64,000 bases of DNA from Candidatus Dojkabacteria bacterium (GCA_034002865.1 JAVEZR010000001.1:53247-117246); one strand, 5' to 3'; positions 12,335 through 50,027 are shown, numbered from the stretch's first letter. Notes: a model not told the origin generated them from the sequence alone. Made by a program: numbers and translations.

Positions 12335-13192
12335 ATGATTCTACTAGATGGTAGTACACTCTCCGATAAGAAGTTAAACAGATTAAGGGATCAAATAAAA
12401 GAGTATATAGATATAGGCTCTAGGACTCCTAGATTAGATATAATTCTTGTAGGTGAAGATTTCGGTAGTAAGAAGTATGTGGGAATGAAACAGAGCAGAG
12501 CAATGGGTTTAGGTATTAAATGTGTTGTTCATGAGTTTGAGTCAACTGTAAAAGAGAAAGAGATAGTAGAGTTAATAGAGAAGTTAAATAGAGATGAGAG
12601 AGTAGATGGCTTAATGGTTCAACTGCCACTACCAAAGGGAATAGACAGTGACATTGTATTAGAAACAATAGATCCTAAGAAGGATGTAGATGGTCTTACA
12701 TCTTCTAACTTAGGTAAACTTTTTAAAAATGACTCCAAAGCAATTGCTCCTGCAACAGCGAAAGGGATATTAGACATACTTAAGGAGTATGAAATAGAGA
12801 TAGATGGTGCAGAAGTAGTAGTAATTGGAAGAAGTGATATTGTAGGCTTACCAACAGCTGCAATATTACAAAATGCTAATGCTACTGTTACTGTATGTCA
12901 TTCTCATACAAAAAATCTCAAAAGTATATGTAAAAGAGCAGATATCTTAGTAGTTGGTATTGGTAAAGCAGAGTATATAGATAAAGGGTATGTAAAAGAT
13001 GGTGCAACTGTGATAGATATAGGTACTAATCGCAATCAAGAGGGGAAACTAGTAGGTGATGTTAAAATGGGTAGTGTAAAGAAGGTTGCAAAATATATTA
13101 CTCCTGTACCAGGTGGTATAGGTCCAATGACTGTAGTATCTCTCCTTGATAATTTGTTTGAGGTATATAAAAAGAATGTTAAGAAATTCTAA
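12335..13192 (+). CDS. folD: Bifunctional methylenetetrahydrofolate dehydrogenase/cyclohydrolase FolD
   Basis: 285 aa with FolD motifs (YVGMKQSRAMGLGIK, VDGLMVQLPLP, DVDGL, VIGRSDIVGLP, PVPGGIGPMTV). Confidence 0.9.
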   Translation: MILLDGSTLSDKKLNRLRDQIKEYIDIGSRTPRLDIILVGEDFGSKKYVGMKQSRAMGLGIKCVVHEFESTVKEKEIVELIEKLNRDERVDGLMVQLPLPKGIDSDIVLETIDPKKDVDGLTSSNLGKLFKNDSKAIAPATAKGILDILKEYEIEIDGAEVVVIGRSDIVGLPTAAILQNANATVTVCHSHTKNLKSICKRADILVVGIGKAEYIDKGYVKDGATVIDIGTNRNQEGKLVGDVKMGSVKKVAKYITPVPGGIGPMTVVSLLDNLFEVYKKNVKKF

Positions 13193-14411
13193 GGATACTA
13201 TTTTCAAATATATAGATGGTGAAGCTAGAAGACAGATAGAGGGTATTGAATTAATAGCTTCTGAAAACTATGTTAGCAAAGACGTACTTACTGCGATGGG
13301 CAGTATACTTACTAATAAATACTCAGAGGGATATCCAGATAAAAGATACTATGGTGGTAATGAATATATAGATAAAATAGAGAAGGAGTGTATAGCTAGA
13401 GCAAAGGATCTGTTTAAAGCAGAGCATGTTAATGTACAGCCTTACTCTGGTTCACCTGCTAACTTAGCTGTTCATTTAGCATTTTTAAATCCAGGAGATA
13501 AGACAATGGGTATGGATCTCTCTGCTGGTGGTCATCTTACACACGGCTTTAAAGTCTCAATTAGTGGTAAATATTTTGACTCAGTAAGTTACGGTGTAAA
13601 TAGTGATGGATATATTGATTACGATGAAGTAAGGAAGATAGCATTAGAACATAGGCCTAAGTTAATATGGAGTGGTTTCTCTGCATACTCTCGTATAATT
13701 GATTGGAGTGAGTTTAGGAAGATTGCAGATGAAATTGACGCTATTCTTGTTGCTGATATTGCTCATGTTGCTGGATTGGTTGCAGGTGGTGTATATCCCT
13801 CTCCTGTAGGTATAGCTGATGTGGTTACTACAACCACTCATAAGACGCTCAGAGGGCCTAGAGGAGCAATGATTATGTGTAAAGAGGAGTATGGAGAGGT
13901 AATAGATAAAGCAGTATTCCCTGGCCTTCAGGGAGGTCCACACAATCATACTACAGCAGCAATAGCTATATCTTTACAAGAGGCTAATACGGATGAATTT
14001 AAGCAGTATTCAAAGCAAACAGTGGATAATGCAAAAACTCTTGCTAATGATTTAATAAAGAGAGGATTTAAGATTGTATCTAATGGAACAGATAACCACC
14101 TTTTTCTCATTGATACAGTAGGTAGTGTGGGTTTAAGTGGTAAAGAAGCCTCTGATATCTTAGAAGAGGTAAATATTACTGTAAACAAGAATAGTATACC
14201 TAATGATACACGTAAACCTTGGGATCCATCAGGTATACGTATTGGTACACCAGCTATTACTACAAGAGGTATGAATGAGAAAGATATGCTCTTTATCTCT
14301 GAAGTAATAGATAGCGCTATTAATAAAAAAGAAGATTTAAAGATATTAAAATCGAAGGTAATAAATTTTACAAAGAGATTTCCAATCCCTGGAATAGAAA
14401 TAAATTCATAA
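13176..14411 (+). CDS. glyA: Serine hydroxymethyltransferase GlyA
   Basis: Canonical SHMT motifs (LIASENYVS, YSEGYP, VQPYSGSPANLAV, the TTTTHKTLRGPRG PLP-lysine region). The track ORF begins at 13146. The Met at 13176 (MLRNSKD...) best matches SHMT N-termini and overlaps the end of folD by 17 nt. Confidence 0.93.
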   Translation: MLRNSKDTIFKYIDGEARRQIEGIELIASENYVSKDVLTAMGSILTNKYSEGYPDKRYYGGNEYIDKIEKECIARAKDLFKAEHVNVQPYSGSPANLAVHLAFLNPGDKTMGMDLSAGGHLTHGFKVSISGKYFDSVSYGVNSDGYIDYDEVRKIALEHRPKLIWSGFSAYSRIIDWSEFRKIADEIDAILVADIAHVAGLVAGGVYPSPVGIADVVTTTTHKTLRGPRGAMIMCKEEYGEVIDKAVFPGLQGGPHNHTTAAIAISLQEANTDEFKQYSKQTVDNAKTLANDLIKRGFKIVSNGTDNHLFLIDTVGSVGLSGKEASDILEEVNITVNKNSIPNDTRKPWDPSGIRIGTPAITTRGMNEKDMLFISEVIDSAINKKEDLKILKSKVINFTKRFPIPGIEINS

Positions 14412-16035: not shown

Positions 16036-16596
16036 ATGATACTGTCGGATAGAAGTATAAAAGAAAAAATACGTACTGGAGAGATTAGTATAGAGCCTTT
16101 CTCACATGAATTCATACAACCTGCTTCATATGATTTACATTTAGATAAAAATATATTGGTTTTTAATACTAAAAAGTATGACATTATCGATGTAAAAAAA
16201 CCTCTAGATGACTTAATGTTAAAGGTAGAGATTGATGATATAGAGGGGTATACTCTTAAACCTACTGAATTTATCTTAGCTAATGTAGTAGAGATAACTG
16301 GGGTAGATAGTAAGCACGTTGGTAGGTTAGAGGGTAAGAGTTCATTAGCAAGAATGGGTTTAATCATTCATGCTACTGCAGGATTTTTAGATCCGGGTAA
16401 TAAGCTTAGACTTACTCTTGAGATAGCGAATCTTTCTCCATTACCAATTAGAATATATGAGGGTATGAAGATAGCACAGTTAGCTTTTGAACAGCTAGAT
16501 AAGGATTGTGAAAGACCTTACGGTAGTTCTGGCTTAAATAGTAAGTACAAGGGTGATATGACTGTACAGGCAAGTAGGATGTGGAAGAATTTTTAA
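16036..16596 (+). CDS. dcd: dCTP deaminase
   Basis: 186 aa. The N-terminus MILSDRSIKEKIRTGEISIEPF...QPASYDLHL matches the Dcd family, and the size is typical. Confidence 0.88.
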   Translation: MILSDRSIKEKIRTGEISIEPFSHEFIQPASYDLHLDKNILVFNTKKYDIIDVKKPLDDLMLKVEIDDIEGYTLKPTEFILANVVEITGVDSKHVGRLEGKSSLARMGLIIHATAGFLDPGNKLRLTLEIANLSPLPIRIYEGMKIAQLAFEQLDKDCERPYGSSGLNSKYKGDMTVQASRMWKNF

Positions 16597-16614
16597 TTTA
16601 ATTTTCCATAAGTA

Positions 16615-17904
16615 ATGTTTAAAGATATCAGAAAAGAGTTTCCAATATTAAAAGATTCTCTTTTTGGTAAAAAGTTTGTGTATTTAGATAGTGCTGCATC
16701 TACACAGAAACCTGAGTATGTAATCGAACGTCTTAAGAAATACTATGTAGAGGAGAATGCAAATATTCATAGAGGCCCATATGATCTTTCTGTGAATGGT
16801 ACAAAGCTTTGGGAGTGGGCTCATGAGAAGGTAGCCTCCTTTATCAATGCTAAGTCATATAAAGAGATAATCTTTGTTAGAAATACTACAGAGGGTTTAA
16901 ATTTCTTAGTAAATACATTCGGTAGAGAGCTACTGTCAAAGGGGGATACTGTAGTTGTGAGTGAGATGGAGCATCACAGTAATATTGTTTCTTGGATGTT
17001 ATTACAAAAGCAGATTGATTTTAAAATAGAGTATATTCCTTTAAAGGAGGATTTTACTTTAGATTTAGATTGGTTAAGAGAGTTGATAAAGAGAGAGGGT
17101 AGTAGGATAAAGATAGTTTCTGTTGTACATATATCTAATGTATTAGGTGTAAAGAATGATGTAGAGGAGATATTTAAGATTGCTAAAGAGAATAGCTCTT
17201 TTACAATCCTTGATGCTGCTCAAAGCATTGTTCATACCAAGGTTGATGTTCAAAAGATTGGTTGTGATGCTTTGGTGTTCTCTGGACATAAGGCGTATGC
17301 TCCTACAGGTACGGGAGCGATATATTGTAAGCAGGAATACTTAGAGAAACTTACACCATGGATGGGTGGTGGAGAGATGATATCTTCTGTGTCTTTTAAA
17401 GATTTTGAATACAATGAACTACCGTGGAAGTTTGAGGCTGGTACTCCAGATATAGGGGGAGGTATTGTACTTGGTAGTGCAATAGAGTGGTTTGAGAATA
17501 CATTAGAGAGGATAGGGGGTTGGGATGGTTTAATAGAGCATGAGCAGGGATTAATAAAGTTTTTCTTTAATGAGTTTGATGGTATTGAGTGGTTTAAACA
17601 TTTTGGGCCAAAGGATAGCTCTCTGAAGTATGGTGCTATCGCATTTCATCTTGATGGTTTTACATTTAGAGGCTGTAAGGATATTTTTAGGATAGAAACA
17701 AATAGGGAGGGAAACAGTATTAGTGAGTTTCTTAACGAGAGTGGAATAGCCTTCAGAGAGGGTTATCACTGTGCAGAGCCTTTGCATGATAAGTTGTGTG
17801 TAGGTCCTTCATTAAGATTTAGTTTAGGTATATATAATAACCAAGATGATCTTAAATATGCTGCTAATATGCTTAAACAGGCGGTTTTGAGAGGAATGGA
17901 GTAA
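16615..17904 (+). CDS. sufS: Cysteine desulfurase, SufS/Csd family (class V aminotransferase)
   Basis: SufS-like throughout (DSAASTQKP, ANIHRGPYDLS, SEMEHHSNIVSW, FSGHKAYAPTGTGAIY, FEAGTPDIGG, the REGYHCAEPL active-site Cys region). Confidence 0.85.
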   Translation: MFKDIRKEFPILKDSLFGKKFVYLDSAASTQKPEYVIERLKKYYVEENANIHRGPYDLSVNGTKLWEWAHEKVASFINAKSYKEIIFVRNTTEGLNFLVNTFGRELLSKGDTVVVSEMEHHSNIVSWMLLQKQIDFKIEYIPLKEDFTLDLDWLRELIKREGSRIKIVSVVHISNVLGVKNDVEEIFKIAKENSSFTILDAAQSIVHTKVDVQKIGCDALVFSGHKAYAPTGTGAIYCKQEYLEKLTPWMGGGEMISSVSFKDFEYNELPWKFEAGTPDIGGGIVLGSAIEWFENTLERIGGWDGLIEHEQGLIKFFFNEFDGIEWFKHFGPKDSSLKYGAIAFHLDGFTFRGCKDIFRIETNREGNSISEFLNESGIAFREGYHCAEPLHDKLCVGPSLRFSLGIYNNQDDLKYAANMLKQAVLRGME

Positions 17905-17985
17905 GCCTGTCTTCTAGTTATACTCTTAGATTAAAGCTTTTAGTCAAATTCCCATGGTTATAGGTCGAGCAAGCCAGGCTTTAAT

Positions 17986-19152
17986 ATGATATATTTTGAT
18001 ATGGATTTAAATAGTGCCCGGAGCAATGCTCCTGTAAATACAGCTAATGATATTCTCTCTGAGATTGTAGAGCTGCAAAACAAGCTTAGTACTTCTCCTG
18101 CACCAATAGAGCTTAAAGAAGATGTAATGAGAACCATTCAGAGATTGGAGAGAATGGCAAAATGGGGTAACTATAGCTCAGAGTTTGAGAGTGTAGATAA
18201 GTATGTAGACTGGGTAACAAGAATACCTTGGGGAGTTATCTCAGAGGATAACTTGAATATTGAGAATGCGAAAGAGCTAATGGACTCTACACACTACGGT
18301 ATGGATGTTGTAAAGAATTTGATACTAGATTACTTAGCAGTAATGCAGATACAGAAGTTAACAGGTAGGAACACTCCTCAGAGTAGTAACTCAGATATGG
18401 CTGGACTAAGGGGTTCATCTGCTAATGCTCCTGTACTTCTTTTCTTAGGCCTACAGGGTGTAGGTAAAACCTCTATTGCAAAATCCATAGCTCAGTCAAT
18501 GGGAAGGAAGTTCGCTAGAGTCTCACTTGGAGCTATTGGAGATGTAAGAACATTAAGAGGTTCACCAAGGCATGAGATTGATTCCGAGCCAGGACAGATA
18601 ATTAAGGCACTAGTTAGGACAGGTACAATGAATCCAGTAATTTTAATTGATGAGATAGAGAAAGCAAGTGGTAATGCTGGTTTACTTAATGATGTAATGG
18701 CAGCTCTACTTGAGATATTAGATTCAGAGCAGAACTCTACTTTTATAGACCACTATGTTGATCATCCTGTAGATTTATCTCAAGTATTTTTCATATGTAC
18801 AGCAAATAACCTAGGCGGGTTATCTGCAGCACTGTTAGATAGGGTGGAGATAATTAGGTTTACTAGTTACTCTGATGAAGAGAAAGGTGTAATAGCTAAG
18901 TCATATATACTACCTAAGGTTTTAAAAAATATGGGACTTACAGATCAACATATTCAAATTACACAGGAGGTATGGCCACTACTAATTAGGCCTGTTGGTT
19001 TTGATGCAGGTATAAGGCAGTTAGAAAGAAATATTGCTACATTAGCTAGAAGTGCTGCTAGACAGATAGTAGGGGGGCATCCTTTACCAATAGTTGTAAC
19101 ACCTGAGAATGTTAAAGAGTATGTACTTCCAGATCAAGGCCCTCTAAGTTAA
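17986..19152 (+). CDS. Lon-like AAA+ ATPase module with no N-terminal LAN domain and no C-terminal protease domain
   Basis: Matches the Lon coiled-coil linker and AAA+ core: YVDWVTRIPWG, HYGMDVVKNLILDYLAV, Walker A GLQGVGKTSIAKSIA, Walker B VILIDEIEK, sensor LLDRVEIIRF. The ORF stops right after the AAA+ small domain. Confidence 0.75.
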   Translation: MIYFDMDLNSARSNAPVNTANDILSEIVELQNKLSTSPAPIELKEDVMRTIQRLERMAKWGNYSSEFESVDKYVDWVTRIPWGVISEDNLNIENAKELMDSTHYGMDVVKNLILDYLAVMQIQKLTGRNTPQSSNSDMAGLRGSSANAPVLLFLGLQGVGKTSIAKSIAQSMGRKFARVSLGAIGDVRTLRGSPRHEIDSEPGQIIKALVRTGTMNPVILIDEIEKASGNAGLLNDVMAALLEILDSEQNSTFIDHYVDHPVDLSQVFFICTANNLGGLSAALLDRVEIIRFTSYSDEEKGVIAKSYILPKVLKNMGLTDQHIQITQEVWPLLIRPVGFDAGIRQLERNIATLARSAARQIVGGHPLPIVVTPENVKEYVLPDQGPLS

Positions 19153-19376
19153 TATCCCTTAAAAGGGTTTGTTAATTGTAAAGCCTTCATTACCCTTGAT
19201 AGATTCTCATCCTTTATTGCCCTGGAGATGTCAGTTTTTACTCTACTTTTTTCTTCATACTTCTCTAAAAATAGAAGATCATTATTAACCTTCTCTTGAG
19301 ATAGCTGTTTTATATCCACAGCTTCTGTTACAAGATACTTCTTTAATTCTTCGTTACTGTTTTGATTTGTCATCAT
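19149..19376 (-). CDS. Small hypothetical protein (75 aa) that is the last gene of the VirB4 operon
   Basis: Charged, probably helical ORF that overlaps the 3' end of the VirB4-like gene (19354-19376), consistent with operon coupling. No motif. Confidence 0.3.
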   Translation of the reverse strand: MMTNQNSNEELKKYLVTEAVDIKQLSQEKVNNDLLFLEKYEEKSRVKTDISRAIKDENLSRVMKALQLTNPFKGY

Positions 19377-21759
19377 TCTCTATTATACCTTGTGGAGTTA
19401 TATGAGTTCTCCCTTTATTTAATTCCTCTCTCTGTTTACGTACCTGCCCCGGTATTGTGTTTTCTTCTACCATATCTACAAAGGATTTCTGAGACTCAAA
19501 CTTTTTAGGATTAAGAATCTCTTCCTGTTCCCTTAGTCTCTTTTCTAACTCCTCCTGATATTTGTTTCTCTCAGATTGAATCTTTTGTATATCTTCCTGC
19601 CTTCTCTCGACTGCTCTTTCAATTAACTCACTCTGTTTTGTAGAATCTGCAGAGATATTCTTCATAGGCTGTTGAGCTGCCGGTGGGTCATATATCTGAG
19701 CTAACTCTTGTATAGATCTTGTATCAGTCATACCTTTCTGACTCTTTCTAGCCTCTATTTCTCTTGGGTCTGAGGTAATTAGTTCATGCTCTGATTGGCT
19801 AGAGAGAACCTGTATTCCAACATGGTTAGCTCCTGCAAAGAAGAGACCTTGTCCTCTGTCACAGTTTAGTAAGAAGTTTCTTTCTCCGTCAGAGAGATTA
19901 AATACCTGTTGTAATTTTTCTACAGCAGATGGACTCTGTTTCATTAATATCTGTATTGAAGAGTTTGAGATTATTGCCCTTCCCATATCATTGTTCATAA
20001 AGTCGGCGACATCTTGTGTAATAGTTGTTAATCCTAAGTAGTACTTTCTTGCTCTTTTAGCTAAAGAGTACATAAATTTTGCAGAATCTTCTCTTTGCAT
20101 CATATACCAAGCTTCATCAACAATTAACTGTCTCCTTCTTTGATCCTTACGTATCTTTGTCCATATGAAATCTAACATTAGATACATTGAGAGAGGCTTT
20201 AGTTCTTCTTGTAGATCTCTAACACTAAATACTGTAAATGGATTATTAATTTCAAAGTTACTAGCCTCATTAAATACTCCAGCCGCACTTCCCATTATAT
20301 ATTTCTCCATTCTTTTAGAGAGCTCGTGTGCTTCTGTTTCTGCCATTCCCTTCAACACCTTATACAGATCCTCTAGAAGTGGAGCAGGGCGTTTCTGTGT
20401 TGCAGGGTCAAATGTAATACCTTTTTCTCTGTACGTTAATATCAGTGCTCTATCTAATATTGAGGTTTCTACATTTGTAAGTCCTTCAAACATTACTTTA
20501 AAGAATCCTTGCAGTGCTAGTAGTTTCATTCTTAACTCGTCATCTCCTTCCTCTGTCACCCCTGAGAGTTCAAATGGATTCATCTTATGACCTTTGTCTT
20601 GTGAGAAAGAAATGTATGCTCCATTAACTGCTTTTGAGAGATCTTCATACTCTCGCTCTGGATCAATAATTATTATATGTGTACCAAGCATTAAGCTTCT
20701 TACGGCTTCTAATTTTACAAAGTAACTTTTACCTGCACCTGACTTAGCAAAGACAACGGCATTTGCATTCTCTAATTCAAATCTGTCAAATATTACTAAG
20801 CTCTTGTTATGCATATTAATCCCGTACATAATTCCATGGTCCATTGTTAACTCTGATGTTACAAATGGGAATGTTGTAGCAAGAGAGGTAGTATCCATAT
20901 TCCTAGTAATGTACAGTTTGTCCAATCCTAATGGCTGAGTGCTGATAAAGGCAGGCTCTTGTTGAAGTGTTGCAGGTTTTGCTATTACATTCATAGCAGC
21001 AAGCGTAGAGGTAACATTCCTAGAGTATTTCTCAAGTAAATCTTTTGAAGGTCCATATATTGTTACGTACATAGCAAAGTGGAAGAACTTCTCAGTACCC
21101 TCTGCTATGGAGTCTTGTAGCTGTTGAGCATCAGAGAGAGCTACCTTTAAAGATGGGTCTACAACTTTCCTATCTTCCATCTGGGAGTAAAGGGTAGCTT
21201 CCATCTCACCTATCTTTTTCTTAAGTTTCTCTAATATGATTTTAGAATCTACAGGGTAGTAAAAGGTACTTATTCTAAGTGAGTGCTCAAAGTTGATAAT
21301 GGGGGAGAGCCAATTAGGTCCTACAAATCTGGGATATCCACTAACAAAAAAGGTTCTAGAGTAGTAATCACCCATTTGTAATGTATTAAAATCTACCTCT
21401 ACATCTATTGGAGCAATGATATCTTGAGTACTTAAGCCTTCGAATTTACCAACAGGAGCTTCAGCTTTTATTTCAACCTTTGGAGGTTTTATACCTATGG
21501 TTGTTTTAAAGTTATCGATTATTTTTGCAAAAGGACTCCTTTTATCCTCTTCCTTAGTATCATTAAATCTATCTTTTTTATCTACTTGCTCTTTAGATGT
21601 TTTAATATTCTCTAAATCTTTTCTTAGATCACCTTGAAAAGAAGCATATTTGTTCTCGGTAAGCTTGTTTTTACGCTCATCGAGCATCTGCATAGTCTTC
21701 GATGTTAAGTTGTTTTTACTATCTTTGTTATTCATCCTCTCCTTTTGGTAATTCTTCAT
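19354..21759 (-). CDS. virB4: VirB4/TrbE/CagE-family type IV secretion ATPase with K/E-rich N- and C-terminal extensions
   Basis: N-domain motif YSRTFFVSGYPRFVGPNWLSPII. Walker A VVFAKSGAGKSYFVK. IIIDPEREYEDL (VirB4 D-P-x-G/E-Y). Walker B LIVDEAWYMM. GLTTITQDVADF. No TM helices. ~100 aa of K/E/D-rich N-terminus and ~150 aa of charged C-terminus lie outside the ATPase core. Confidence 0.85.
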   Translation of the reverse strand: MKNYQKERMNNKDSKNNLTSKTMQMLDERKNKLTENKYASFQGDLRKDLENIKTSKEQVDKKDRFNDTKEEDKRSPFAKIIDNFKTTIGIKPPKVEIKAEAPVGKFEGLSTQDIIAPIDVEVDFNTLQMGDYYSRTFFVSGYPRFVGPNWLSPIINFEHSLRISTFYYPVDSKIILEKLKKKIGEMEATLYSQMEDRKVVDPSLKVALSDAQQLQDSIAEGTEKFFHFAMYVTIYGPSKDLLEKYSRNVTSTLAAMNVIAKPATLQQEPAFISTQPLGLDKLYITRNMDTTSLATTFPFVTSELTMDHGIMYGINMHNKSLVIFDRFELENANAVVFAKSGAGKSYFVKLEAVRSLMLGTHIIIIDPEREYEDLSKAVNGAYISFSQDKGHKMNPFELSGVTEEGDDELRMKLLALQGFFKVMFEGLTNVETSILDRALILTYREKGITFDPATQKRPAPLLEDLYKVLKGMAETEAHELSKRMEKYIMGSAAGVFNEASNFEINNPFTVFSVRDLQEELKPLSMYLMLDFIWTKIRKDQRRRQLIVDEAWYMMQREDSAKFMYSLAKRARKYYLGLTTITQDVADFMNNDMGRAIISNSSIQILMKQSPSAVEKLQQVFNLSDGERNFLLNCDRGQGLFFAGANHVGIQVLSSQSEHELITSDPREIEARKSQKGMTDTRSIQELAQIYDPPAAQQPMKNISADSTKQSELIERAVERRQEDIQKIQSERNKYQEELEKRLREQEEILNPKKFESQKSFVDMVEENTIPGQVRKQREELNKGRTHITPQGIIENDDKSKQ

Positions 21760-22384
21760 CTGGGTTATATATTGTATAAAACTCTGTTATTAACTCTTTA
21801 TTTGTAAGTTGATGTCCAAAGAGTCCCATTCTTCCTAACTGCTTTAGTAGATGATCTCTTTTTGGATAGAGGAAGATTTTAGATTTTTCTAGTAGTTGAT
21901 CCTGTTTCATTGCTAAGCTTCTCTCTATTTCTTCTCTTGTTTGTTTCGATTTTAAAAGAGATGAACCGGGAATCTCACCTGCAGGATTAAAGGGAATTAC
22001 TATTAAGAATGTTTTATCTAATACATCATTTTGAACTATTAAGTTCTGTATAAACTCGGTATATATATTTAACTGTCTTTTTAAACCCTCAGACATGGCT
22101 TCATTCTCCTGCTCTTCAAGGTAATCCACATAGTTAGAGATATCTATTCTCCTTGTTCTAATTAATATTTGGATATGGAAATTAAGGGAGTTTAGTAGTC
22201 CTGCAAAAGCATATATCTTACTATCCTGCTCATACTCTGCTAGTAAGTCAAAGTTAATAGCGGAGGTTTGAAGTACAAGAGCTACAGTACCAGTTTTTGT
22301 AATAACTAAATCATCAACTATCTCTCTTACTTCGAGATGATCCTGTGTAGATGAAGTTGTTCTTGCTCTTGCATTTATATCCAT
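21728..22384 (-). CDS. Hypothetical soluble protein (218 aa), translationally coupled to the flanking membrane-protein and VirB4 genes
   Basis: The stop overlaps the VirB4 start by 32 nt, and the start overlaps the stop of the upstream gene (ATGA). No TM and no recognisable motif. Confidence 0.5.
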   Translation of the reverse strand: MDINARARTTSSTQDHLEVREIVDDLVITKTGTVALVLQTSAINFDLLAEYEQDSKIYAFAGLLNSLNFHIQILIRTRRIDISNYVDYLEEQENEAMSEGLKRQLNIYTEFIQNLIVQNDVLDKTFLIVIPFNPAGEIPGSSLLKSKQTREEIERSLAMKQDQLLEKSKIFLYPKRDHLLKQLGRMGLFGHQLTNKELITEFYTIYNPDEELPKGEDE

Positions 22385-23220
22385 TACTTCAGTGTTATCT
22401 TCAAAGGTAATTTACTCTGATTAGATGATACAACTATTCTTAACTTTGGTGCTCCTGAGATTGGGCCTTCAAACTCTACTGTATATATTCCTTCTGGATA
22501 TATTTTATTAGTTAAGAAGTATCCATTAGGGCCAGTCTTATTAGCATACAGGATCTTACCATTAGAATCCTTAAGAAAGGCATTTATACCAGAGAGAGGT
22601 TGACTGTCTTTAGTACATAGCCAGATATTAATATTACCAGGTAGTTGATCTACACTTTTTATTGGAAATTGGAAGTTAGAGATATTTTCCTCTGAAATAG
22701 TGAGATACTCCTCTGTAGGAGTAATTACCTCTTCTGTTTCTTGCACTACCTGTGGTGTAGTCATAACTTCCTGTGTACTATCTCCTGCTAAGATATCATC
22801 TCCTGGATTCTCTTCAAAGATGTCTACCCTCTGTTTTTGTGTAATATCTGAAGCTCCTATTACCTTCTTCTTGCTTTCATCTACAGCATTAACCTGAGGT
22901 TTAATCCTTTGCTCTTTCATAGTTTGGTTTAACCATACTCTCTGTGTAGGCTTATTTATTGCAGAGAAGAAATTTATAATGGCTTTATCTGCAGGTAAAT
23001 CATTTATTGGTACAAGTGCTAAGAAAGCCCCTATACCTGAGAGTATTGCAAAGAGAGGTATACCAACAATGCCAGGTATATCTCCTCCGATAGAGAAGTA
23101 GAGGAAGATAGAGCCTGTACCTATACCTAAGGCTAAATATGCGAACTCTTTTAATGTAAACCTTGTGAAGAGTTTAAACTCGATATCTAATACATTTTGT
23201 GGAATAGGATGTTGTCTCAT
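22384..23220 (-). CDS. PrgI/VirB3-like membrane hairpin protein fused to a C-terminal extracytoplasmic beta-sandwich domain (carboxypeptidase-regulatory-like)
   Basis: The N-terminus (IPQNVLDIEFKLFTRFTLKEFAYLALGIGTGSIFLYF, then a second TM) resembles PrgI/TcpE/VirB3-family proteins encoded next to VirB4. The C-terminus (KDSNGKILYANKTGPNGYFLTNKIYPEGIYTVEFEGP) looks like a CarboxypepD_reg/Ig-like fold. Confidence 0.45.
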   Translation of the reverse strand: MRQHPIPQNVLDIEFKLFTRFTLKEFAYLALGIGTGSIFLYFSIGGDIPGIVGIPLFAILSGIGAFLALVPINDLPADKAIINFFSAINKPTQRVWLNQTMKEQRIKPQVNAVDESKKKVIGASDITQKQRVDIFEENPGDDILAGDSTQEVMTTPQVVQETEEVITPTEEYLTISEENISNFQFPIKSVDQLPGNINIWLCTKDSQPLSGINAFLKDSNGKILYANKTGPNGYFLTNKIYPEGIYTVEFEGPISGAPKLRIVVSSNQSKLPLKITLK

Positions 23221-42780: not shown

Positions 42781-44007
42781 ATGGCTATGACATCAGAATT
42801 AGTAGCTGCAATTAATCAGATCGCTGCAGAGAGAGGTATAGATAAAGAGGAAGTATTTAAGGCTTTAGAGTCTGCAATATTGAGTGCAGTAAAGAAGGAT
42901 AGGTATGGAAGGGTTGATAGAGAAGATGAAGAGATAGATGAGAAGTTGGGTGCTAATCTTTTTGCAGAGGTAGATAGAGAGACAGGAGAGTTTAAGCTCT
43001 TTGCTTCAAAGGTTGTTGTTAAGAAAGTTAAAGATGAAGAGCTTGAGATTGCACTAAGTGAGGCTGAATTAATCTCCCCAAGTGTAGAGATCGGAGATGC
43101 TGTTCAGATAGAGATGCCCTCTGATGATTTAGGTAGGATTGCAACTCAAACAGCAAAGCAGGTATTACTACAAAAGATTAGAGAGTCTGAAAAGGATGCC
43201 TTAATTAGTGAATTTAGTGATAAGGTGGGAGAGGTATACACCGCATTAATGCAAAGGATGCAAAAGGGTATGGCAGTTATGGAGATAGGTAAAGCTACAG
43301 CATTTATGCCTCCTGAGGAGCAAATTGCAAACGAGTTCTATAGAGTTGGAGAAAGATACAAGGTTTTGTTAAAGAGTATAGAGGATTCTCAGATTCTAGT
43401 ATCAAGAGCAGATCCTAAATTTCTTGTTGAGCTTTTCAGATTAGAAGTCCCAGAGATAGAGTCTGGTGCTGTTGAGATTAAGGCGGTAGCAAGAGAGGCT
43501 GGCTCTAGGAGTAAAATTGCTGTAGTATCTCATCAGGATGGTATAGACCCAATTGGTTCATGCGTAGGTCAAAGAGGTATTCGTATTGCAAATGTAATGA
43601 ATGAGCTTGGGGAGGAGAAGATTGATATAATCGAGTGGGATGAAGATTTAGATAGATTTGTTGCAAATGCTCTAAGTCCTGCAAAAGTAGACTCCGTTAA
43701 AATCTCAGATGAAACAGCAACTGTTACATGTCCTTCCGATCAGCTTTCTTTAGCAATAGGTAGAGATGGACAGAATGTTAGATTAGCATGGAAGTTAACA
43801 GGTACAAAGATTGATATTGTTGGGGCACAGGGAGAAGAGGTAGAGGTGGTTGAAGATGAGAAAGAAGATAGTAAGGATGAGAAAGAGGTAAAGCCAAAGA
43901 AAAAAGCAGAAGCTAAGAAAGAGAGTAAGGAAGATATTGTAGAAGAGAAAGATGCTGTAGAAGAGTATGCGAAAGAGAGTGAAGAGGATGTAGTTAGTAA
44001 AGAATAA
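42781..44007 (+). CDS. nusA: Transcription termination/antitermination factor NusA
   Basis: NusA N-terminal domain (ELVAAINQIAAERGIDKEEVFKALESAILSAV), S1 and KH domains (GSCVGQRGIRIANVMNELGEEKIDIIEWDED), and an acidic K/E-rich tail. Confidence 0.9.
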   Translation: MAMTSELVAAINQIAAERGIDKEEVFKALESAILSAVKKDRYGRVDREDEEIDEKLGANLFAEVDRETGEFKLFASKVVVKKVKDEELEIALSEAELISPSVEIGDAVQIEMPSDDLGRIATQTAKQVLLQKIRESEKDALISEFSDKVGEVYTALMQRMQKGMAVMEIGKATAFMPPEEQIANEFYRVGERYKVLLKSIEDSQILVSRADPKFLVELFRLEVPEIESGAVEIKAVAREAGSRSKIAVVSHQDGIDPIGSCVGQRGIRIANVMNELGEEKIDIIEWDEDLDRFVANALSPAKVDSVKISDETATVTCPSDQLSLAIGRDGQNVRLAWKLTGTKIDIVGAQGEEVEVVEDEKEDSKDEKEVKPKKKAEAKKESKEDIVEEKDAVEEYAKESEEDVVSKE

Positions 44008-44023
44008 TTATAGTTTGTAAGTA

Positions 44024-45604
44024 ATGACAAAGAAGAAAGCAGTGAAAAATACAGAGGTAAATAGAGTTCCAATAGTAGCTATCTTGGGTCATGTTGATCA
44101 TGGAAAAACTACAATATTGGACCAAATACGTAAGAGTAATGTACAAAGCTGCGAAGCTGGTGGTATTACTCAGAGAATTTCTGTGTTTACTGTTTCTCCA
44201 AATAGTGATGAATCTAAGAAAATTACCTTTATTGATACCCCAGGGCATGAGGCCTTTGATTTAATGAGGCTAAGAGGGGGTAGTATTGCTGATATTGTAA
44301 TACTTGTTGTTGCTGGCAATGATGGTGTAAAGCCTCAAACTATTGAATCTATAGACATTATTAATAACTCTACTGCAAGAGCAATAGTAGTTATTAACAA
44401 GAGTGATTTGCCAGATATAGATGTTGCAAAGATAAAAAGAGATTTGGTTAAACATGGTCTTTCTGTAGAAGGGATGGGGGGGAAGATTCCAGTAATAGAG
44501 GTTTCGGGTAAAACAGGTAAGGGAATACCTGAGCTATTAGACTTAATAAATCTTGTTGTAGACATAGAAGGTTTACAAGAGAGAGAAACTCTTACAGAGG
44601 GTGTTGCAGCTAAAGCTTTTGTGTTGGAGTCTGTAAAAGAGCAATCTAAGGGGAATGTATCTACCCTAGTTCTAACGTCAGGAGATCTCTGTAAGGGATC
44701 TTGGATAGGGTATAAGATTGGAGAGAGGTTTAAGATAGAGAAAGTTAAAGGCATTATCTCTGAGGAAGGAGAGAATGTTTGTGACCTTTTCTGTGGCTAT
44801 GGAGGTAATGTAATAGGTCTCTCAGAGTTAATACCTGTTGGTTCACAAGTATATATATTAAAAGAGAATAGTGAGAAGCTTCTTTCCTCTTTATATAAAG
44901 TTGAGGAAGAAGTCGTAGAAGAAGAAGTAGTTGAAGGGGAAGAGAAAGCCATTGCTCAAGATGATATGTTTGGGGATTTGTTCAAAGAGGAAAAAGAAGA
45001 GGGAGAGAATTTCCTAAACGTTATACTTAAAAGCTCTTCGGAGGGATCTCTTGAGGCTATTAAGAAATCTCTTAGTAAGGTAGAGAAAGATGGGTATAAA
45101 GTAAAAGTTATATCTGAAGGAGTTGGTGATGTTAGTTTACAAGATGTAGAGATGGCTAAGCTCTCCAAGGCTATTCTTTTAGGATTTGAAGTTGGTAGTG
45201 AGAGGGGCGTACAAGATATTTCTAAGAAGAGTGGGGTTTTATACCGTACATATTCAATTATCTACAAACTAGTTGAAGAGATTGAGGATGCTCTAGATAT
45301 GCTCTCCGCTCCTGCACATGAAGAGGAAGAGATAGGGAGTGGAGTTATAAAGATGATTATTACCCTTACAGATGGATCTAAGGTATTGGGAACAAGAGTT
45401 AAAGATGGTATATTAAAGAGAGATTGTAAATGTTACTTGGTTAGAAATGATGAAATTCTTGGAGAGAGTAAGATTAAATCTTTAAGAAAGAGCAAAGATA
45501 CAGTTACTCAAGTAAAGCAGGGAGAAGAGTGTGGAGTTATATTGAATAGCAATGTAGAAGCCCAAGAGGGAGACGAGCTTTACTGTTATAAGGTTATTCA
45601 TTAG
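44024..45604 (+). CDS. infB: Translation initiation factor IF-2, minimal form that starts at the G domain
   Basis: VPIVAILGHVDHGKTTILD, DTPGHEAF, NKSDL, and a C-terminal beta-barrel. At 526 aa it lacks the long N-terminal region of typical bacterial IF-2. Confidence 0.9.
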   Translation: MTKKKAVKNTEVNRVPIVAILGHVDHGKTTILDQIRKSNVQSCEAGGITQRISVFTVSPNSDESKKITFIDTPGHEAFDLMRLRGGSIADIVILVVAGNDGVKPQTIESIDIINNSTARAIVVINKSDLPDIDVAKIKRDLVKHGLSVEGMGGKIPVIEVSGKTGKGIPELLDLINLVVDIEGLQERETLTEGVAAKAFVLESVKEQSKGNVSTLVLTSGDLCKGSWIGYKIGERFKIEKVKGIISEEGENVCDLFCGYGGNVIGLSELIPVGSQVYILKENSEKLLSSLYKVEEEVVEEEVVEGEEKAIAQDDMFGDLFKEEKEEGENFLNVILKSSSEGSLEAIKKSLSKVEKDGYKVKVISEGVGDVSLQDVEMAKLSKAILLGFEVGSERGVQDISKKSGVLYRTYSIIYKLVEEIEDALDMLSAPAHEEEEIGSGVIKMIITLTDGSKVLGTRVKDGILKRDCKCYLVRNDEILGESKIKSLRKSKDTVTQVKQGEECGVILNSNVEAQEGDELYCYKVIH

Positions 45605-45611
45605 TTAAAAG

Positions 45612-45640
45612 TTGACACAAACCCTATAAGGATATAAAAT
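45612..45640 (+). promoter_or_regulatory. Sigma70-like promoter upstream of rpsO (TTGACA-N17-TAAAAT)
   Basis: TTGACA at 45612-45617, a 17-nt spacer, and TAAAAT at 45635-45640. The hexamers are identical to those of the groES promoter. Confidence 0.5.
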
Positions 45641-45702
45641 AGGCTTTGTATTGTCTGTTGTTAGTATTGTAAAATTAATTATATGGTGTTAATCTTGAAT
45701 AT

Positions 45703-45966
45703 ATGTCACTAGTCAAAGAAGAAAAGCAGAATATAATAAACGAATTTGCCCTCCATGAGGGTGATACTGGTTCTCCAGAAGTTCAGATAGCTATCCTTAC
45801 AGAAGAGATCACTAGATTAACTGAACATCTAAAGGATCATAAGAAAGATAATCACTCAAGGAGAGGCTTGCTACAGAAGGTAGGTAAGAGACGAAGACTT
45901 ATTCAATATCTTCAACTTAACGAACCTGAAAGATACGAGACATTTTCAAAGAAAATAAAGATATAG
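45703..45966 (+). CDS. rpsO: 30S ribosomal protein S15
   Basis: 87 aa: [51 protein letters not shown]. Confidence 0.95.
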
Positions 45967-45970
45967 CTTA

Positions 45971-46000
45971 GGGGCTTTTGTTAAAAGCCTTTCTTTTTCT
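45971..46000 (+). terminator. rpsO-pnp intergenic hairpin (ggctttt / gtt / aaaagcc) plus T-tract; attenuator or terminator
   Basis: A 7-9-bp stem at 45971-45991 followed by ttctttttct. This rpsO-pnp position corresponds to the regulatory hairpin known in other bacteria. Confidence 0.5.
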
Positions 46001-46076
46001 CCTCTCTCTTGATATAACTTCTAAGTTAAAGGCCTAAAGCCTGAGTTTTGATAATTTAATATTTATACATTTATTT

Positions 46077-48182
46077 ATGCTTTTTAATCATAAAATATAC
46101 GAATTTGAAATAGATGGTAGGAAGTGTTCCTTTGAAACAGGAAAGCTTGCCTTGCGATCTGAATCTGCAATTATTGCCAGAATGGGCGATACTGTTGTAG
46201 AAGTTAATGTGAACAGTGCTCCAGCAAAAGGAGATCTCGACTATTTCCCTCTCTCTGTAGAGTACATAGAAAGATTCTATGCATCTGGAAAGATAAATGG
46301 GTCTAGATTTGTAAAGATAGAGAGATATCCTAGTGATGATGCTGTTCTTAAGGCAAGGATGATAGATAGGGCACTACGTCCTAGATTCCCCAGTGATTAC
46401 AGAAATGAGGTAAGTCTAATTGTAACTGTAATGTCATATGATGAAGAGAATGACCCTGTCCTCTTAGCAATTAATGCAGCTTCAGTTGCTTTACTTAATT
46501 CTAAGGCACCATTCAATGGACCTGTATCAGGTGTAAGAATGGGGATTGTAGATGGGAAGATAAAGCCAATATATAAGAGTATGGAGGATGTAGATGAGAA
46601 GAATCAAATGAACTATGTAGTAGGTGGAGATGGAGAGCAGTTCTCAATGATTGATGCAGGCTGTTATGAAGTACCAGAGGATCAAGTAATAGATGCAATG
46701 GAGAGTAGTCTTGTAGAAATGAAAGTATGGGTAGAGGAACAGAACAAATTTGTAGATATGTTAGAGAAGAAAGATAAAGCATATGTACCATTTGTAATAG
46801 AAGAAGATATGCTAAATGCTATTTCAGAATTTCTAGGAGATAGGGTATTAGAGAATCTCTTAGCTGCTGATAGACAGAAGCATGAGGAAACCAAAGAGGA
46901 GATGTTTAAGCAGTTTGAGGGTAAATATACAAAATCAAATATGACAGAAGCATATGATAAGCTTCAGAAGAAAGCATTACGTAAGTATGTAAAAGAAACC
47001 AAAAAGAGAGTTGATGGAAGAGAGTTAAATGAGATTAGGGAAATGGCTGCAGAGGTAGATTTACTACCTAGAGTCCATGGATCTGCCCTCTTTACAAGAG
47101 GAGTAACCCAAGTTCTCTCTATAGCTACATTAGGTAGTCTTAAGGATGCAAAGTTAGTGGACGATATGTTAGGTGAGAAAGAGAAAAGATATATGCACTT
47201 CTATAATGATTTACCATTCGCATACGGTGTCGCAGACAGAGTTAGGTTAAATCCAAGTAGGAGAGCTGTAGGTCATGGAATGTTAGCAGAGAAAGCCCTT
47301 ATTCCTGTAATACCATCAGAGTCAGATTTCCCATATACAATCCTAGTTATGTCTGAGATACAGGGAGAGAATGGATCTAGCTCAATGGCTTCAGCATGTG
47401 GTTCCTCTTTAGCACTAATGGCAGCAGGTGTCCCTATACGAAAGATAGTGGGTGGTATTGCTTGTGGTCTTGTTGCAGATGAAAACGGAGAGTTTCATAT
47501 CTTAACTGATATGCAAGGTGTAGAAGATTTCTATGGAGACATGGATTTCAAAGTAACAGGTACAAAGGATGGAATAACTGCAGTACAAATGGATACTAAG
47601 ATGGCAGGATTGAGTATGGATATTGTTAAGGCAACATTTGAAGTATCTAAAGAGGCAAGAGTAAAAGTAATTGAAGTAATTGAAGGCTCTCTTTCTGAGT
47701 CTAGAGGAGAAATCTCTAAGTTTGCACCAAAGGTAGCTAGAGAGAAAATACCCGTAGACAAGATTGGAGAGTTAATTGGCCCTGGAGGTAAAAATATTAG
47801 AGAATTAACTGAACAGACTGGAGCAGAGATAGCTGTAGAGGAAGATGGTACTGTAAATATATACTCTTCAAGTCAAGAGTCTATAGATATGGCACTGAAA
47901 TATGTTAAAGGTCTTAGCTTTGTACCAGTAGTAGGAGAGATATATGACGGTAAGGTAGCCTCTATCATGGAGTACGGAGCCTTCGTAGATATTGCTCCAG
48001 GAGTATCTGGCTTAGTACATGTATCTGAGATTACAGATGAATTTGTAAAAGATGTACATAAATTCCTTAATGAGGGAGACAGTGTAAAGATAAAGATATT
48101 GGAGAAAGATAAGCTTGGGAGATTAAAATTCAGTATCAAACAGGCAACAGAAGGAAATAAGAGAGAAGAAGTTCAGGAGTAA
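46077..48182 (+). CDS. pnp: Polyribonucleotide nucleotidyltransferase (PNPase)
   Basis: 701 aa. Two RNase PH-like domains, then KH (IGELIGPGGKNIRELTEQTGAEI) and S1 (GKVASIMEYGAFVDIAPGVSGLVHVSEI) domains. Confidence 0.95.
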   Translation: MLFNHKIYEFEIDGRKCSFETGKLALRSESAIIARMGDTVVEVNVNSAPAKGDLDYFPLSVEYIERFYASGKINGSRFVKIERYPSDDAVLKARMIDRALRPRFPSDYRNEVSLIVTVMSYDEENDPVLLAINAASVALLNSKAPFNGPVSGVRMGIVDGKIKPIYKSMEDVDEKNQMNYVVGGDGEQFSMIDAGCYEVPEDQVIDAMESSLVEMKVWVEEQNKFVDMLEKKDKAYVPFVIEEDMLNAISEFLGDRVLENLLAADRQKHEETKEEMFKQFEGKYTKSNMTEAYDKLQKKALRKYVKETKKRVDGRELNEIREMAAEVDLLPRVHGSALFTRGVTQVLSIATLGSLKDAKLVDDMLGEKEKRYMHFYNDLPFAYGVADRVRLNPSRRAVGHGMLAEKALIPVIPSESDFPYTILVMSEIQGENGSSSMASACGSSLALMAAGVPIRKIVGGIACGLVADENGEFHILTDMQGVEDFYGDMDFKVTGTKDGITAVQMDTKMAGLSMDIVKATFEVSKEARVKVIEVIEGSLSESRGEISKFAPKVAREKIPVDKIGELIGPGGKNIRELTEQTGAEIAVEEDGTVNIYSSSQESIDMALKYVKGLSFVPVVGEIYDGKVASIMEYGAFVDIAPGVSGLVHVSEITDEFVKDVHKFLNEGDSVKIKILEKDKLGRLKFSIKQATEGNKREEVQE

Positions 48183-48240: not shown

Positions 48241-49299
48241 CTATGCTTTAACTATCTTAGCAATATAGAACCCCATCATTTCAGGAGAGGGTAAAATTCT
48301 AATACTCTTTTTAACTGAAGGATCATATGTATTACCACTCCAATGAGTTATACCAGGAGATGTAAACTGCTTAAAAGCTTTAAATTTGTCAGAGCTAATT
48401 AAATCTATATCTACTACCTTTGCATTCCTATGCTTATCTAATAGGTATGTAACAATCGCTTCATTCTCTTCTGGTTCTAATGTACATGTAGAGTAAACAA
48501 GTGTACCACCACTTTTTAATGTTCTAAATGCAGACTCTATTAACTCCTTTTGTAGAGTAGAGGAACCTTTTACTTTCTTAATACTCCAAAATCTTAGAGG
48601 TTTAGGACCCTTTAGATATATCATTCCCTCACCACTACATGGAGCATCTAGAAGAACTTTATCAAAATAGTCTGGGTACTTTCTACCAAACTCTCTTGCA
48701 TCACTAAGAGTAATCTTTACACTTGTAGCACCAAACTGTTCTACAACATTCCTAAGTGAATTTGTACGACTAACTTCTATTTCATTTGCAAGAATGGTTG
48801 CCTTATTATTTGTTAACTGTGCAATATGGGTAGTCTTACTACCAGGTGCGGAGCATAGATCAACGATAGTCTCCCTTGGCTTAGGATCTAATACCAATGT
48901 ACCTAATATGCTAGAGAGATTTTGTATATAGAAATCTCCATGCCTATACTCCTCTGTTTGTGACACCTCATCCTTATCCCTGTTATTAACAAAGTAGGTA
49001 TCAGGAGCCCACGGTATCTCCTCTAAGACATAACCCCTAAGCTTTAAACTTTTAAATGTATCCTGTGGTCTAGCTTTAAGAGAGTTTAATCTAATAGTAG
49101 TTCTTGCTCTTTGGCTAAATATTGGTACTATCTGAGCCTTAGATACTCTTAATATACTTGCCATTCTTGAGATAAAGATATCCTCTTTCGTGTAATATCT
49201 TTCCTCTTTAGAGCTATCATAGAAAGGAACTGCTCTTTTCCTCTTAAAATTTGTTCTTAGCTTCCTCTTAAATTCTCTTCCCTTTTTTCTATCTTTCAT
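48241..49299 (-). CDS. RsmB/RsmF (NOL1/NOP2/Sun) family rRNA cytosine-C5 methyltransferase
   Basis: SAM-binding DLCSAPGSKTTHIA, and catalytic LLDAPCSGEGMI and TLVYSTCTLEPEENE motifs. There is no NusB-like N-domain. Confidence 0.75.
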   Translation of the reverse strand: MKDRKKGREFKRKLRTNFKRKRAVPFYDSSKEERYYTKEDIFISRMASILRVSKAQIVPIFSQRARTTIRLNSLKARPQDTFKSLKLRGYVLEEIPWAPDTYFVNNRDKDEVSQTEEYRHGDFYIQNLSSILGTLVLDPKPRETIVDLCSAPGSKTTHIAQLTNNKATILANEIEVSRTNSLRNVVEQFGATSVKITLSDAREFGRKYPDYFDKVLLDAPCSGEGMIYLKGPKPLRFWSIKKVKGSSTLQKELIESAFRTLKSGGTLVYSTCTLEPEENEAIVTYLLDKHRNAKVVDIDLISSDKFKAFKQFTSPGITHWSGNTYDPSVKKSIRILPSPEMMGFYIAKIVKA

Positions 49300-50027
49300 T
49301 ATATATCTCCCTTTAGATATTTTAATATACTACCAATTACTAACCCTGCTGTTTCTGTTCTTAGCATATTACCCTCTAGTTTAATAAAGCTAAATCCTAA
49401 ATCTTTGAATATCTCTATATCACTCTCACCCCATCCCTTCTCAGGACCTATTGCAATCACAAATGGCTTCTTTATATTAACACCCTTTACATACTGACTT
49501 AGAGAGGATGTTTGTACATTCTCTGTAGCTAGACATATCTTATTACTACCTTCATCTACAGAGAGCTCTGTAATTTTAATAGGTTTCTCTATTATCGTAC
49601 TCTTTAAAGTTCTAGATTGTTCTACAGCATCTTTAATAATCTTTCTCCAAAGACCGTAATCTTTAATAGCCTTGTTTTTACTTCTAAGAGAATATTTAGA
49701 CTCTATTGGAACAATTCTATCTATACCAATCTCTACAGATTTTTCTATAAAGAAGTTAAACTTACTATCATTACTTAATGATTGAATAATTGTAAAATCT
49801 ATTCCATCTAAAACATCCTTCTCTTCAATCATCTCTCTGATCTCTACCTCCACAGAGCTCTTCTCTATATCTGTTACTATTGCTAAAAAGATAGATTGAT
49901 AGTTCTCTATTTCAATAACATCTTCAATATTGAGCTTCAGTGTATTAATAGCAAAGCTACTATCTTTGTCTGATAGGTGAGTAATATCTCCCTCTTCTAA
50001 TTTATGACTAATAAAGAATCTTTTCAT
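49299..50027 (-). CDS. rsmE: 16S rRNA (uracil1498-N3)-methyltransferase RsmE
   Basis: MKRFFIS... N-terminus, IAIGPEKGW and NMLRTETAG motifs; 242 aa. Confidence 0.75.
   Translation of the reverse strand: MKRFFISHKLEEGDITHLSDKDSSFAINTLKLNIEDVIEIENYQSIFLAIVTDIEKSSVEVEIREMIEEKDVLDGIDFTIIQSLSNDSKFNFFIEKSVEIGIDRIVPIESKYSLRSKNKAIKDYGLWRKIIKDAVEQSRTLKSTIIEKPIKITELSVDEGSNKICLATENVQTSSLSQYVKGVNIKKPFVIAIGPEKGWGESDIEIFKDLGFSFIKLEGNMLRTETAGLVIGSILKYLKGDI

Follow-up and report, generated by a model that had tools for sequence, protein, structure and literature searches.

Lon is the textbook example of a single chain that unites an ATPase with a protease; a long-running debate concerns whether it also acts as a chaperone independently of proteolysis. 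In LonA, a pore-loop tyrosine (Tyr398 in Escherichia coli, Tyr397 in M. taiwanensis) grips the substrate, and Tyr397 is needed for degradation (PMC8503904). Among laboratory fragments of Lon, EcLon(235-584), which binds ADP, is arranged in an open hexameric spiral; the hexamers of MtaLon fragments are closed (PMC6722904). LonC is reported to be a Lon-like protease devoid of ATP-powered unfolding activity (PMC3391209). Here we describe a Lon-like ATPase of 388 amino acids (aa), as listed, from a 64,000-nucleotide stretch of Candidatus Dojkabacteria bacterium DNA (GCA_034002865.1, JAVEZR010000001.1:53247-117246; hereafter the window, with positions counted from its first letter). An earlier note on this DNA (the original prediction) read the gene as encoding the Lon AAA+ module by itself, with both the N domain and the protease domain missing. 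We find that description right in essence; what it missed is the wide clade to which the protein belongs, its remodeled pore loop, and the recurrent pnp-(gene)-udg-rnj context of its relatives. Residue numbers follow the 388-aa reading throughout.

Results

Domain content and match to LonA

The Lon-like ATPase is the middle of a LonA protease alone: a three-helix bundle, an AAA+ domain and a Lon-type lid. Its only Pfam matches are PF00004 (AAA) at residues 151-293 (E = 1.4e-19) and PF22667 (Lon_lid) at residues 314-365 (E = 8e-10), with neither PF05362 (Lon_C) nor PF02190 (LAN/LON_substr_bdg) matched. The NCBIfam model TIGR00763 ('lon') aligns over model positions 253-566 of 795 with 329.7 bits, under its equivalog cut-off of 608.05, and NF008053 gives 223.8 against a cut-off of 891. 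The best matches in the PDB are LonA and LONP1 chains (E = 1e-71 to 1e-57), with B. subtilis LonA (3m6a) at 3.5e-71; the engineered E. coli fragment 6n2i_A matches at 5e-63, and the lid also matches the isolated Lon alpha-domain structures 4git, 1x37 and 1qzm. When E. coli Lon was compared with the window by tblastn at a permissive threshold, residues 254-579 (of 784) aligned to positions 18073..19125 (2e-63, 35-37% identity). Foldseek, run on an AlphaFold2 (AF2) model of the protein, returned Lon in all of its top 50 matches, LONP1 and LonA first. In the NCBIfam and PDB searches ClpB D2 also gave weak direct matches (E ~1e-6). Pfam, TIGR00763, the PDB and tblastn thus agree with the original prediction on the stand-alone module.

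The two ends of the protein were then placed against LonA. The AF2 model (predicted local distance difference test, pLDDT, 72) has N-terminal helices at residues 17-35, 41-59 and 67-79, which, set beside the description of EcLon(235-584), correspond to the three-helix bundle that closes the helical HI(CC) region, the long coiled-coil helix being absent. Alignment to E. coli Lon begins at about residue 254 here and at about 212 at the earliest in relatives. The start therefore does not lie where the coiled coil follows the LAN domain, as had been suggested; the long helix is gone too. The bundle bears a conserved motif, Y(V/I)DW...PWG. At the other end the proposed boundary is correct: the C-terminus falls 0-3 residues beyond the start of the LonA protease-domain linker (E. 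coli residue ~585), where S16 would begin. The last eight residues form a tail, LPDQGPLS, in which seven positions are at least 90% conserved or invariant within the Dojkabacteria subclade (Pro382 is the exception); this conservation stops at the subclade, and the wider family is without it.

The ATPase motifs quoted in the original prediction, GVGKTS (Walker A), ILIDEIEK (Walker B) and LLDRVEIIRF, are all present, although the last, which had been called a sensor, here holds the arginine finger R286. Across 118 aligned members, K161, D222/E223, N274, R286 and R344 do not vary. Ahead of Walker A lies an insertion of 17-25 residues that has no LonA counterpart and is predicted to be disordered (pLDDT < 50, residues 130-149).

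Search for a protease or N domain

When the window was searched in all frames by tblastn with S16 (E. coli Lon 585-784), the N domain and ClpP as queries, no match elsewhere in it reached an E-value under 0.5; the claim that the flanking frames encode no S16 domain is upheld, and the downstream sequence is a conserved orf75/VirB4 operon. Because the 3' end abuts the convergent, conserved orf75, the two stop codons overlapping in TTAA (19149-19152), there is no space for a frameshifted protease remnant. In relatives, the search covered ±10 kb around the gene in ~150 genomes (154 loci, ~2 Mb of flanking DNA). The 86 Dojkabacteria-type loci (1.3 Mb) held no S16 match at E ≤ 0.01, and their alignment to E. 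coli Lon never passed residue 583; the 68 wider-family loci (0.78 Mb) held no match to S16, ClpP or LAN at E ≤ 1e-4. As a positive control, the S16 query found 15 of 16 full-length Lon loci in the wider-family database (1e-47 to 1e-73). Precomputed Pfam annotation of the neighboring genes likewise contained neither PF05362 nor PF02190.

Two other candidates were set aside. PADLOC returned generic AAA matches only (best DolB, 38.8 bits) and no BrxL, so a reading as a BrxL-like defense system was rejected. A 'VGF' tripeptide before sensor-2, considered as an IGF-like loop for docking ClpP, was discounted, as its place in the lid is the nucleotide-site region and not a surface loop.

Conservation and selection

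Among 5.8 billion proteins, the 120 best homologues measure 332-407 aa and share 66-100% identity with the Lon-like ATPase; they contain AAA and Lon_lid only, none has Lon_C, and the named organisms among them are all Candidatus Dojkabacteria or WS6. A check for the truncated form in relatives was positive: at least 162 genomes (one per GTDB species) bear a relative of the same length, and the best 80 of the 162 (63-88% identity) are all of the short type. Compared with six relatives, the proportion of nonsynonymous differences (pN) is 0.08-0.15 and that of synonymous differences (pS) 0.64-0.78; the resulting pN/pS of 0.11-0.21, obtained with synonymous sites saturated, indicates strong purifying selection. 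Judged from sequence comparison, the gene is intact, selected and of fixed length across Dojkabacteria, and is not a pseudogene.

A Patescibacteria-wide clade with a remodeled pore loop

More short proteins, at 40-54% identity, came from an exhaustive HMMER search that covered 1.84 billion cluster representatives. Ten of these were inspected by Pfam: AAA was found in all ten, Lon_lid in nine, and Lon_C or LAN in none. Nearly all short proteins of the wider family end 0-3 residues past the equivalent of E. coli residue 585. A profile built from short proteins (A2) gave 120 best matches of 342-405 aa, again with AAA and Lon_lid only, and the organism names among them were Nomurabacteria, Saccharimonadales, WWE3, Dojkabacteria and 'Patescibacteria group'. 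Several family proteins are labeled 'Lon protease' or 'ATP-dependent Lon protease' in the databases. In a neighbor-joining tree of 281 AAA+ columns, 25 short proteins and 29 full-length Lons fell into two separate groups, a split recovered in 81 of 100 bootstraps; this is a test of monophyly by a distance method only. On these alignments and this tree, the Lon-like ATPase is a member of a clade of protease-less Lon homologues that spans the Patescibacteria (candidate phyla radiation, CPR).

The family differs from LonA at the nucleotide site and in the pore. Its Walker A reads G-(L/V/I)-x-G-x-G-K-T, as against GPPGVGKT in LonA, and its pore loop 1 ends in (D/E)-(A/S)-E-P-G, here D-S-E-P-G, as against G-(A/S)-(M/L)-P-G. 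Asp199 and Glu201 are thus family-wide acidic replacements of Gly and Met; the Glu, at the equivalent of E. coli residue 402, occurs in 118 of 118 members of the Dojkabacteria set and in 118 of 118 of the wider set. The position of the substrate-gripping tyrosine (E. coli Y398) is taken by Glu197, after His196. No member of the Dojkabacteria subclade has an aromatic residue there (0/118; Glu 93, Ser 17, Ala 5), whereas 83 of 119 wider-family proteins keep Phe or Tyr. The Lon-like ATPase is one member of a large family and not a local oddity, and its pore loop has diverged further in Dojkabacteria.

A literature search found no account of a protease-less Lon family in Patescibacteria/CPR, Dojkabacteria or Saccharibacteria, and the Patescibacteria-wide family is apparently undescribed. 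Southlakia epibionticum, a complete Saccharibacteria genome with a Pfam table in the supplement of PMC10633639, appears to be without the Lon-like ATPase: Lon_C occurs there only in YifB/ComM and PF07724 only in two Clp-type ATPases, and FtsH and ClpP are present. The family thus has a wide but incomplete distribution in the radiation, which includes at least one organism with no Lon protease at all.

Five family proteins, P0143 (548 aa), P0145 (428), P0121 (507), P0147 (486) and P0196 (529), are extended at the N- or C-terminus by 70-190 residues that Pfam does not match and that may be lineage-specific adaptor or targeting regions. Many metagenome-assembled genomes with the Dojkabacteria-type gene and synteny ('binchicken', SRP co-assemblies; L009, L012, L015, L017 and others) are titled 'uncultured Candidatus Saccharibacteria bacterium', a title that seems to be either a catch-all or an erroneous taxon name for Patescibacteria assemblies.

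Start codon and genomic context

The coordinates of the gene, its parts and its neighbors are collected in Table 1. The true start of the Lon-like ATPase is probably the ATG at 18001, because Met6 is invariant in the aligned family, the NCBI model (P0002) has 383 aa, and one relative (L008) carries an in-frame stop two codons 5' of the Met6 equivalent. A promoter and terminator scan of 16500-19600 found fewer promoter-like sites than in shuffled sequence and no terminator 3' of the gene.

In Dojkabacteria the gene closes a co-directional ABC-folD-glyA-thyX-dcd-(sufS) array, of which the window holds folD-glyA-thyX-dcd-sufS, genes of thymidylate and dUTP metabolism. Opposite it stands the convergent orf75-VirB4-TraC-like-PrgI-like operon. 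The original prediction was right that the two are convergent, and their stop codons overlap; the link that this implied is weak. VirB4 adjoins the Lon-like ATPase in 81 of 86 Dojkabacteria loci, where the entire 20-kb region is syntenic; in several Dojkabacteria loci an insert of 2-3 kb separates the two genes, and only 2 of 27 loci of the wider family, in other Patescibacteria, have a VirB4-like gene within 10 kb. The offset of the overlapping stop codons (a TTAA palindrome) is kept in most Dojkabacteria loci. In one Dojkabacteria sublineage an opposite-strand gene of 388 aa with no Pfam match sits in the SufS-like position (L006, 8707..9873, minus strand; L007, 4135..5301, minus strand). 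From these two loci, the upstream neighbor of the Lon-like ATPase is not fixed, while the downstream VirB4 operon is.

The usual gene order in other Patescibacteria is different: nusA-infB-rpsO-pnp-(hyp)-Lon-like ATPase-udg-rnj-ftsK. Counts here come from 68 short-type metagenome loci and individual look-ups, with loci that have enough flank as denominators. The gene for PNPase lies ≤ 1.6 kb upstream on the same strand in 30 of 44 loci, that for RNase J ≤ 2 kb downstream in 30 of 38, and a PF03167 uracil-DNA glycosylase gene (udg) directly 3' in 21 of 50, often only 0-60 bp away. At one Dojkabacteria-like locus, L084, udg persists between the Lon-like ATPase and VirB4. The window contains nusA, infB and pnp, and no udg, rnj or ftsK. 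Because the pnp cluster stands apart without it, the Lon-like ATPase has left its usual cluster in Dojkabacteria and lies ~27 kb away.

Several further features of the window were noted. Convergent with pnp, at its 3' side, are genes for RsmB/F-like and RsmE-like (PF04452) RNA methyltransferases. ThyX (PF02511) is about twice its usual length, and measures 531-538 aa in the four Dojkabacteria contexts examined. As listed, folD and glyA overlap by 47 nt, because of which the start of glyA probably lies further downstream. An 869-aa frame in a co-directional gene run has no Pfam match at E ≤ 1e-4.

Table 1. Features of the Lon-like ATPase gene and its surroundings in the window.
Feature	Position	Strand	Remarks
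Lon-like ATPase, open reading frame as listed	17986..19152	+	388 aa; stop TAA 19150-19152 overlaps the stop of convergent orf75
Lon-like ATPase, most likely true coding sequence	18001..19152	+	383 aa; begins MDLNSAR...
N-terminal three-helix bundle, residues 17-79	18034..18222	+	helices alpha8-alpha10 of the LonA HI(CC) region; aligns with E. coli Lon 254-310
AAA+ nucleotide-binding (alpha/beta) domain, residues ~92-293	18259..18864	+	PF00004; Foldseek LONP1/LonA
Variable low-complexity insertion 5' of Walker A, residues 127-149	18364..18432	+	lineage-specific; gap opposite E. coli Lon
Walker A GLQGVGKT, K161	18448..18471	+	alignment
Pore loop 1 RGSPRHEIDSEPG, residues 191-203	18556..18594	+	alignment
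Walker B VILIDEIEK, D222/E223	18637..18663	+	followed by pore loop 2 with a 2-residue insertion
Sensor-1 (CTAN, N274) and trans-acting arginine finger (LLDR, R286)	18796..18861	+	both residues invariant
Lon-type lid (small alpha-helical) domain, residues 294-380	18865..19125	+	PF22667; sensor-2 GIRQLER, R344, nt 18997-19029
C-terminal tail LPDQGPLS	19126..19149	+	conservation in aligned relatives
orf75, conserved 75-aa frame	19149..19376	-	no Pfam match; type-IV-secretion-like operon (19149..23220)
VirB4/TraG-P-loop ATPase, 801 aa	19354..21759	-	type-IV-secretion-like operon
TraC-like, 218 aa	21728..22384	-	type-IV-secretion-like operon
PrgI-like, 278 aa	22384..23220	-	type-IV-secretion-like operon
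folD	12335..13192		overlaps glyA
glyA	13146..14411		TTG start
thyX, 531 aa	14422..16017	+	PF02511
nusA, infB, pnp	42781..48182	+	pnp at 46077..48182
RsmB/F-like and RsmE-like RNA methyltransferase genes	48241..50027		convergent with pnp
869-aa open reading frame	55023..57632	+	no Pfam match

Discussion

On balance we lean towards reading the Lon-like ATPase as a ring-forming, non-proteolytic descendant of LonA that remodels proteins. It would assemble as a Lon-like ring, because an invariant trans-acting arginine finger would have no sense outside an oligomer and a hexameric spiral is the packing of the equivalent E. coli fragment; on the same grounds, the assembly would be a hexamer that hydrolyzes ATP. 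Hydrolysis would then allow clients to be gripped through the central pore, remodeled or unfolded, and let go undegraded, as by an unfoldase or chaperone, with the three-helix bundle expected at the pore entrance. The acidic motif (D/E)-(A/S)-E-P-G would change client preference, plausibly towards basic segments, and the replacement of the tyrosine in the Dojkabacteria subclade (Glu197, with His196 before it) suggests that gripping is weaker than in LonA or different from it.

Several points weigh against this reading. The oligomeric state, the ATPase activity and any client are what we infer. The protease domains of LonA add to the stability of its hexamer, and a ring without them is therefore not guaranteed. 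The loss of the pore-loop aromatic throughout the aligned Dojkabacteria subclade argues against efficient threading of polypeptides here, although most of the wider family keep this residue. Further, the AF2 model is of moderate quality at its pLDDT of 72, and the peptidase search spanned 64 kb of the present genome and, in relatives, ±10 kb around the gene.

The ATPase might instead be one half of a split Lon, feeding unfolded clients to a peptidase encoded elsewhere (a free S16 domain, ClpP, an HslV-like protein or some other) much as ClpX serves ClpP; the subclade tail LPDQGPLS could then be a docking element. Two-component AAA+ proteases are common, the tail is nearly invariant within Dojkabacteria, and the searched DNA is a small part of any genome. 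Domain schemes of AAA+ proteases are set out in PMC6722904. We nevertheless hold such a division of labor to be unlikely, given that neither the window nor the ±10 kb around the gene in ~150 genomes holds an S16, ClpP or LAN gene, that the tail is without conservation in the wider family, and that no IGF-type loop for docking ClpP was identified. The sole Lon_C of Southlakia, in YifB/ComM, also speaks against it, if just indirectly, because that genome appears to be without the Lon-like ATPase. A role linked to nucleic acids, which strikes us as rather doubtful, would have the protein work alongside the RNA-turnover enzymes PNPase and RNase J, or with uracil repair, and not in general protein quality control; it might, for instance, remodel ribonucleoprotein or DNA-protein complexes. 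Its same-strand position between pnp and rnj in other Patescibacteria, often with udg next to it, is consistent with this, as are the udg pairing kept in L084, the array neighbors in the window that serve thymidylate and dUTP metabolism, and the fact that LonA is a known DNA binder (PDB 6n2i is titled 'DNA-binding ATP-dependent protease La'). However, nusA-infB-rpsO-pnp...rnj...ftsK is an old housekeeping synteny, and position in it may therefore say nothing about function; the Dojkabacteria gene lies outside the cluster and yet shows no visible change to its core, Southlakia has pnp-hyp-rnj-ftsK without it, and an acidic pore loop fits the threading of nucleic acid poorly.

That the protein is an accessory factor of the VirB4/TraC-like/PrgI-like operon seems very improbable. 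Convergent adjacency with overlapping stop codons in 81 of 86 Dojkabacteria loci would favor it, but the whole 20-kb region is syntenic in that lineage, the pairing recurs in 2 of 27 wider-family loci, and an insert of 2-3 kb parts the genes in several Dojkabacteria loci; being convergent, the genes are also not co-transcribed; we rejected functional linkage to VirB4 as lineage-specific synteny. To the idea of a decaying lon remnant, whether pseudogene or recent truncation, we give a negligible probability. The absence of two of the three LonA regions is all that speaks for it. The gene has the same length in at least 162 species, its pN/pS is 0.11-0.21 and its catalytic motifs are invariant; no downstream frame holds S16-like sequence, and a further conserved gene already occupies the next 4 bases. 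The gene-fission remnant raised in the original prediction is thus refuted by a short form conserved in at least 162 species-level genomes, under purifying selection, with its ATPase motifs kept.

A broader history, which as a whole we regard as quite improbable, would have Lon shed its N and protease domains once, anciently, at an early point of Patescibacteria evolution; the resulting non-proteolytic AAA+ remodeler would then have been widely retained as a housekeeping gene, would serve in the pnp-rnj cluster as a new ATP-driven component of RNA turnover or nucleoprotein remodeling, and would be the sole relic of Lon where a Lon protease is otherwise lacking.

The fold and the chemistry of the Lon-like ATPase are familiar, and the unexpected part is that a 'Lon without a protease' occurs in nature and is strongly selected. 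A natural, selected Lon that is without both protease and N domain amounts to a natural experiment on the Lon motor alone, and the family is found in hundreds of Patescibacteria species. The label 'Lon protease' would wrongly credit these reduced genomes with Lon proteolysis, an annotation that is corrected here. The remodeled acidic pore loop and the recurrent pnp/udg/rnj context, for their part, yield concrete, testable hypotheses.

Among known systems, LonA (E. coli Lon, B. subtilis LonA, human LONP1) is homologous over the three-helix bundle, the AAA+ domain and the Lon-specific lid, with the same Walker A/B, sensor-1, arginine-finger and sensor-2 residues and a conserved pre-sensor-1 hairpin region. 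LonA has in addition a LAN domain, a long coiled-coil helix and an S16 Ser-Lys protease domain, all three of which the Lon-like ATPase is without. The two also differ in pore loop 1 (RGHRRTY(I/V)G(A/S)MPG in LonA, RGSPRHEIDSEPG here) and in Walker A (GPPG against GLQG), and the 17-25-residue insertion before Walker A is found in the Lon-like ATPase only. The second AAA+ module of ClpB/Hsp104, of the same HCLR clade as Lon, offers a precedent for a protease-free remodeler, as a functional analogy and not as a sign of membership: in ClpB a pair of AAA+ modules is joined by an N domain and a coiled-coil M domain, and the pore-loop tyrosine is canonical; the Lon-like ATPase is far nearer to Lon. 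LonC is likewise a natural Lon derivative minus one of two coupled activities, and is the mirror image, with the protease kept and the ATPase function reportedly lost. EcLon(235-584) (PDB 6N2I; also MtaLon 207-492, PDB 4YPN) has near-identical boundaries, with the bundle, the nucleotide-binding (NB) domain and the helical (H) domain and neither N nor P domain. It is an engineered truncation of a protease, whereas the Lon-like ATPase is a natural, selected, full-length product with a remodeled pore loop.

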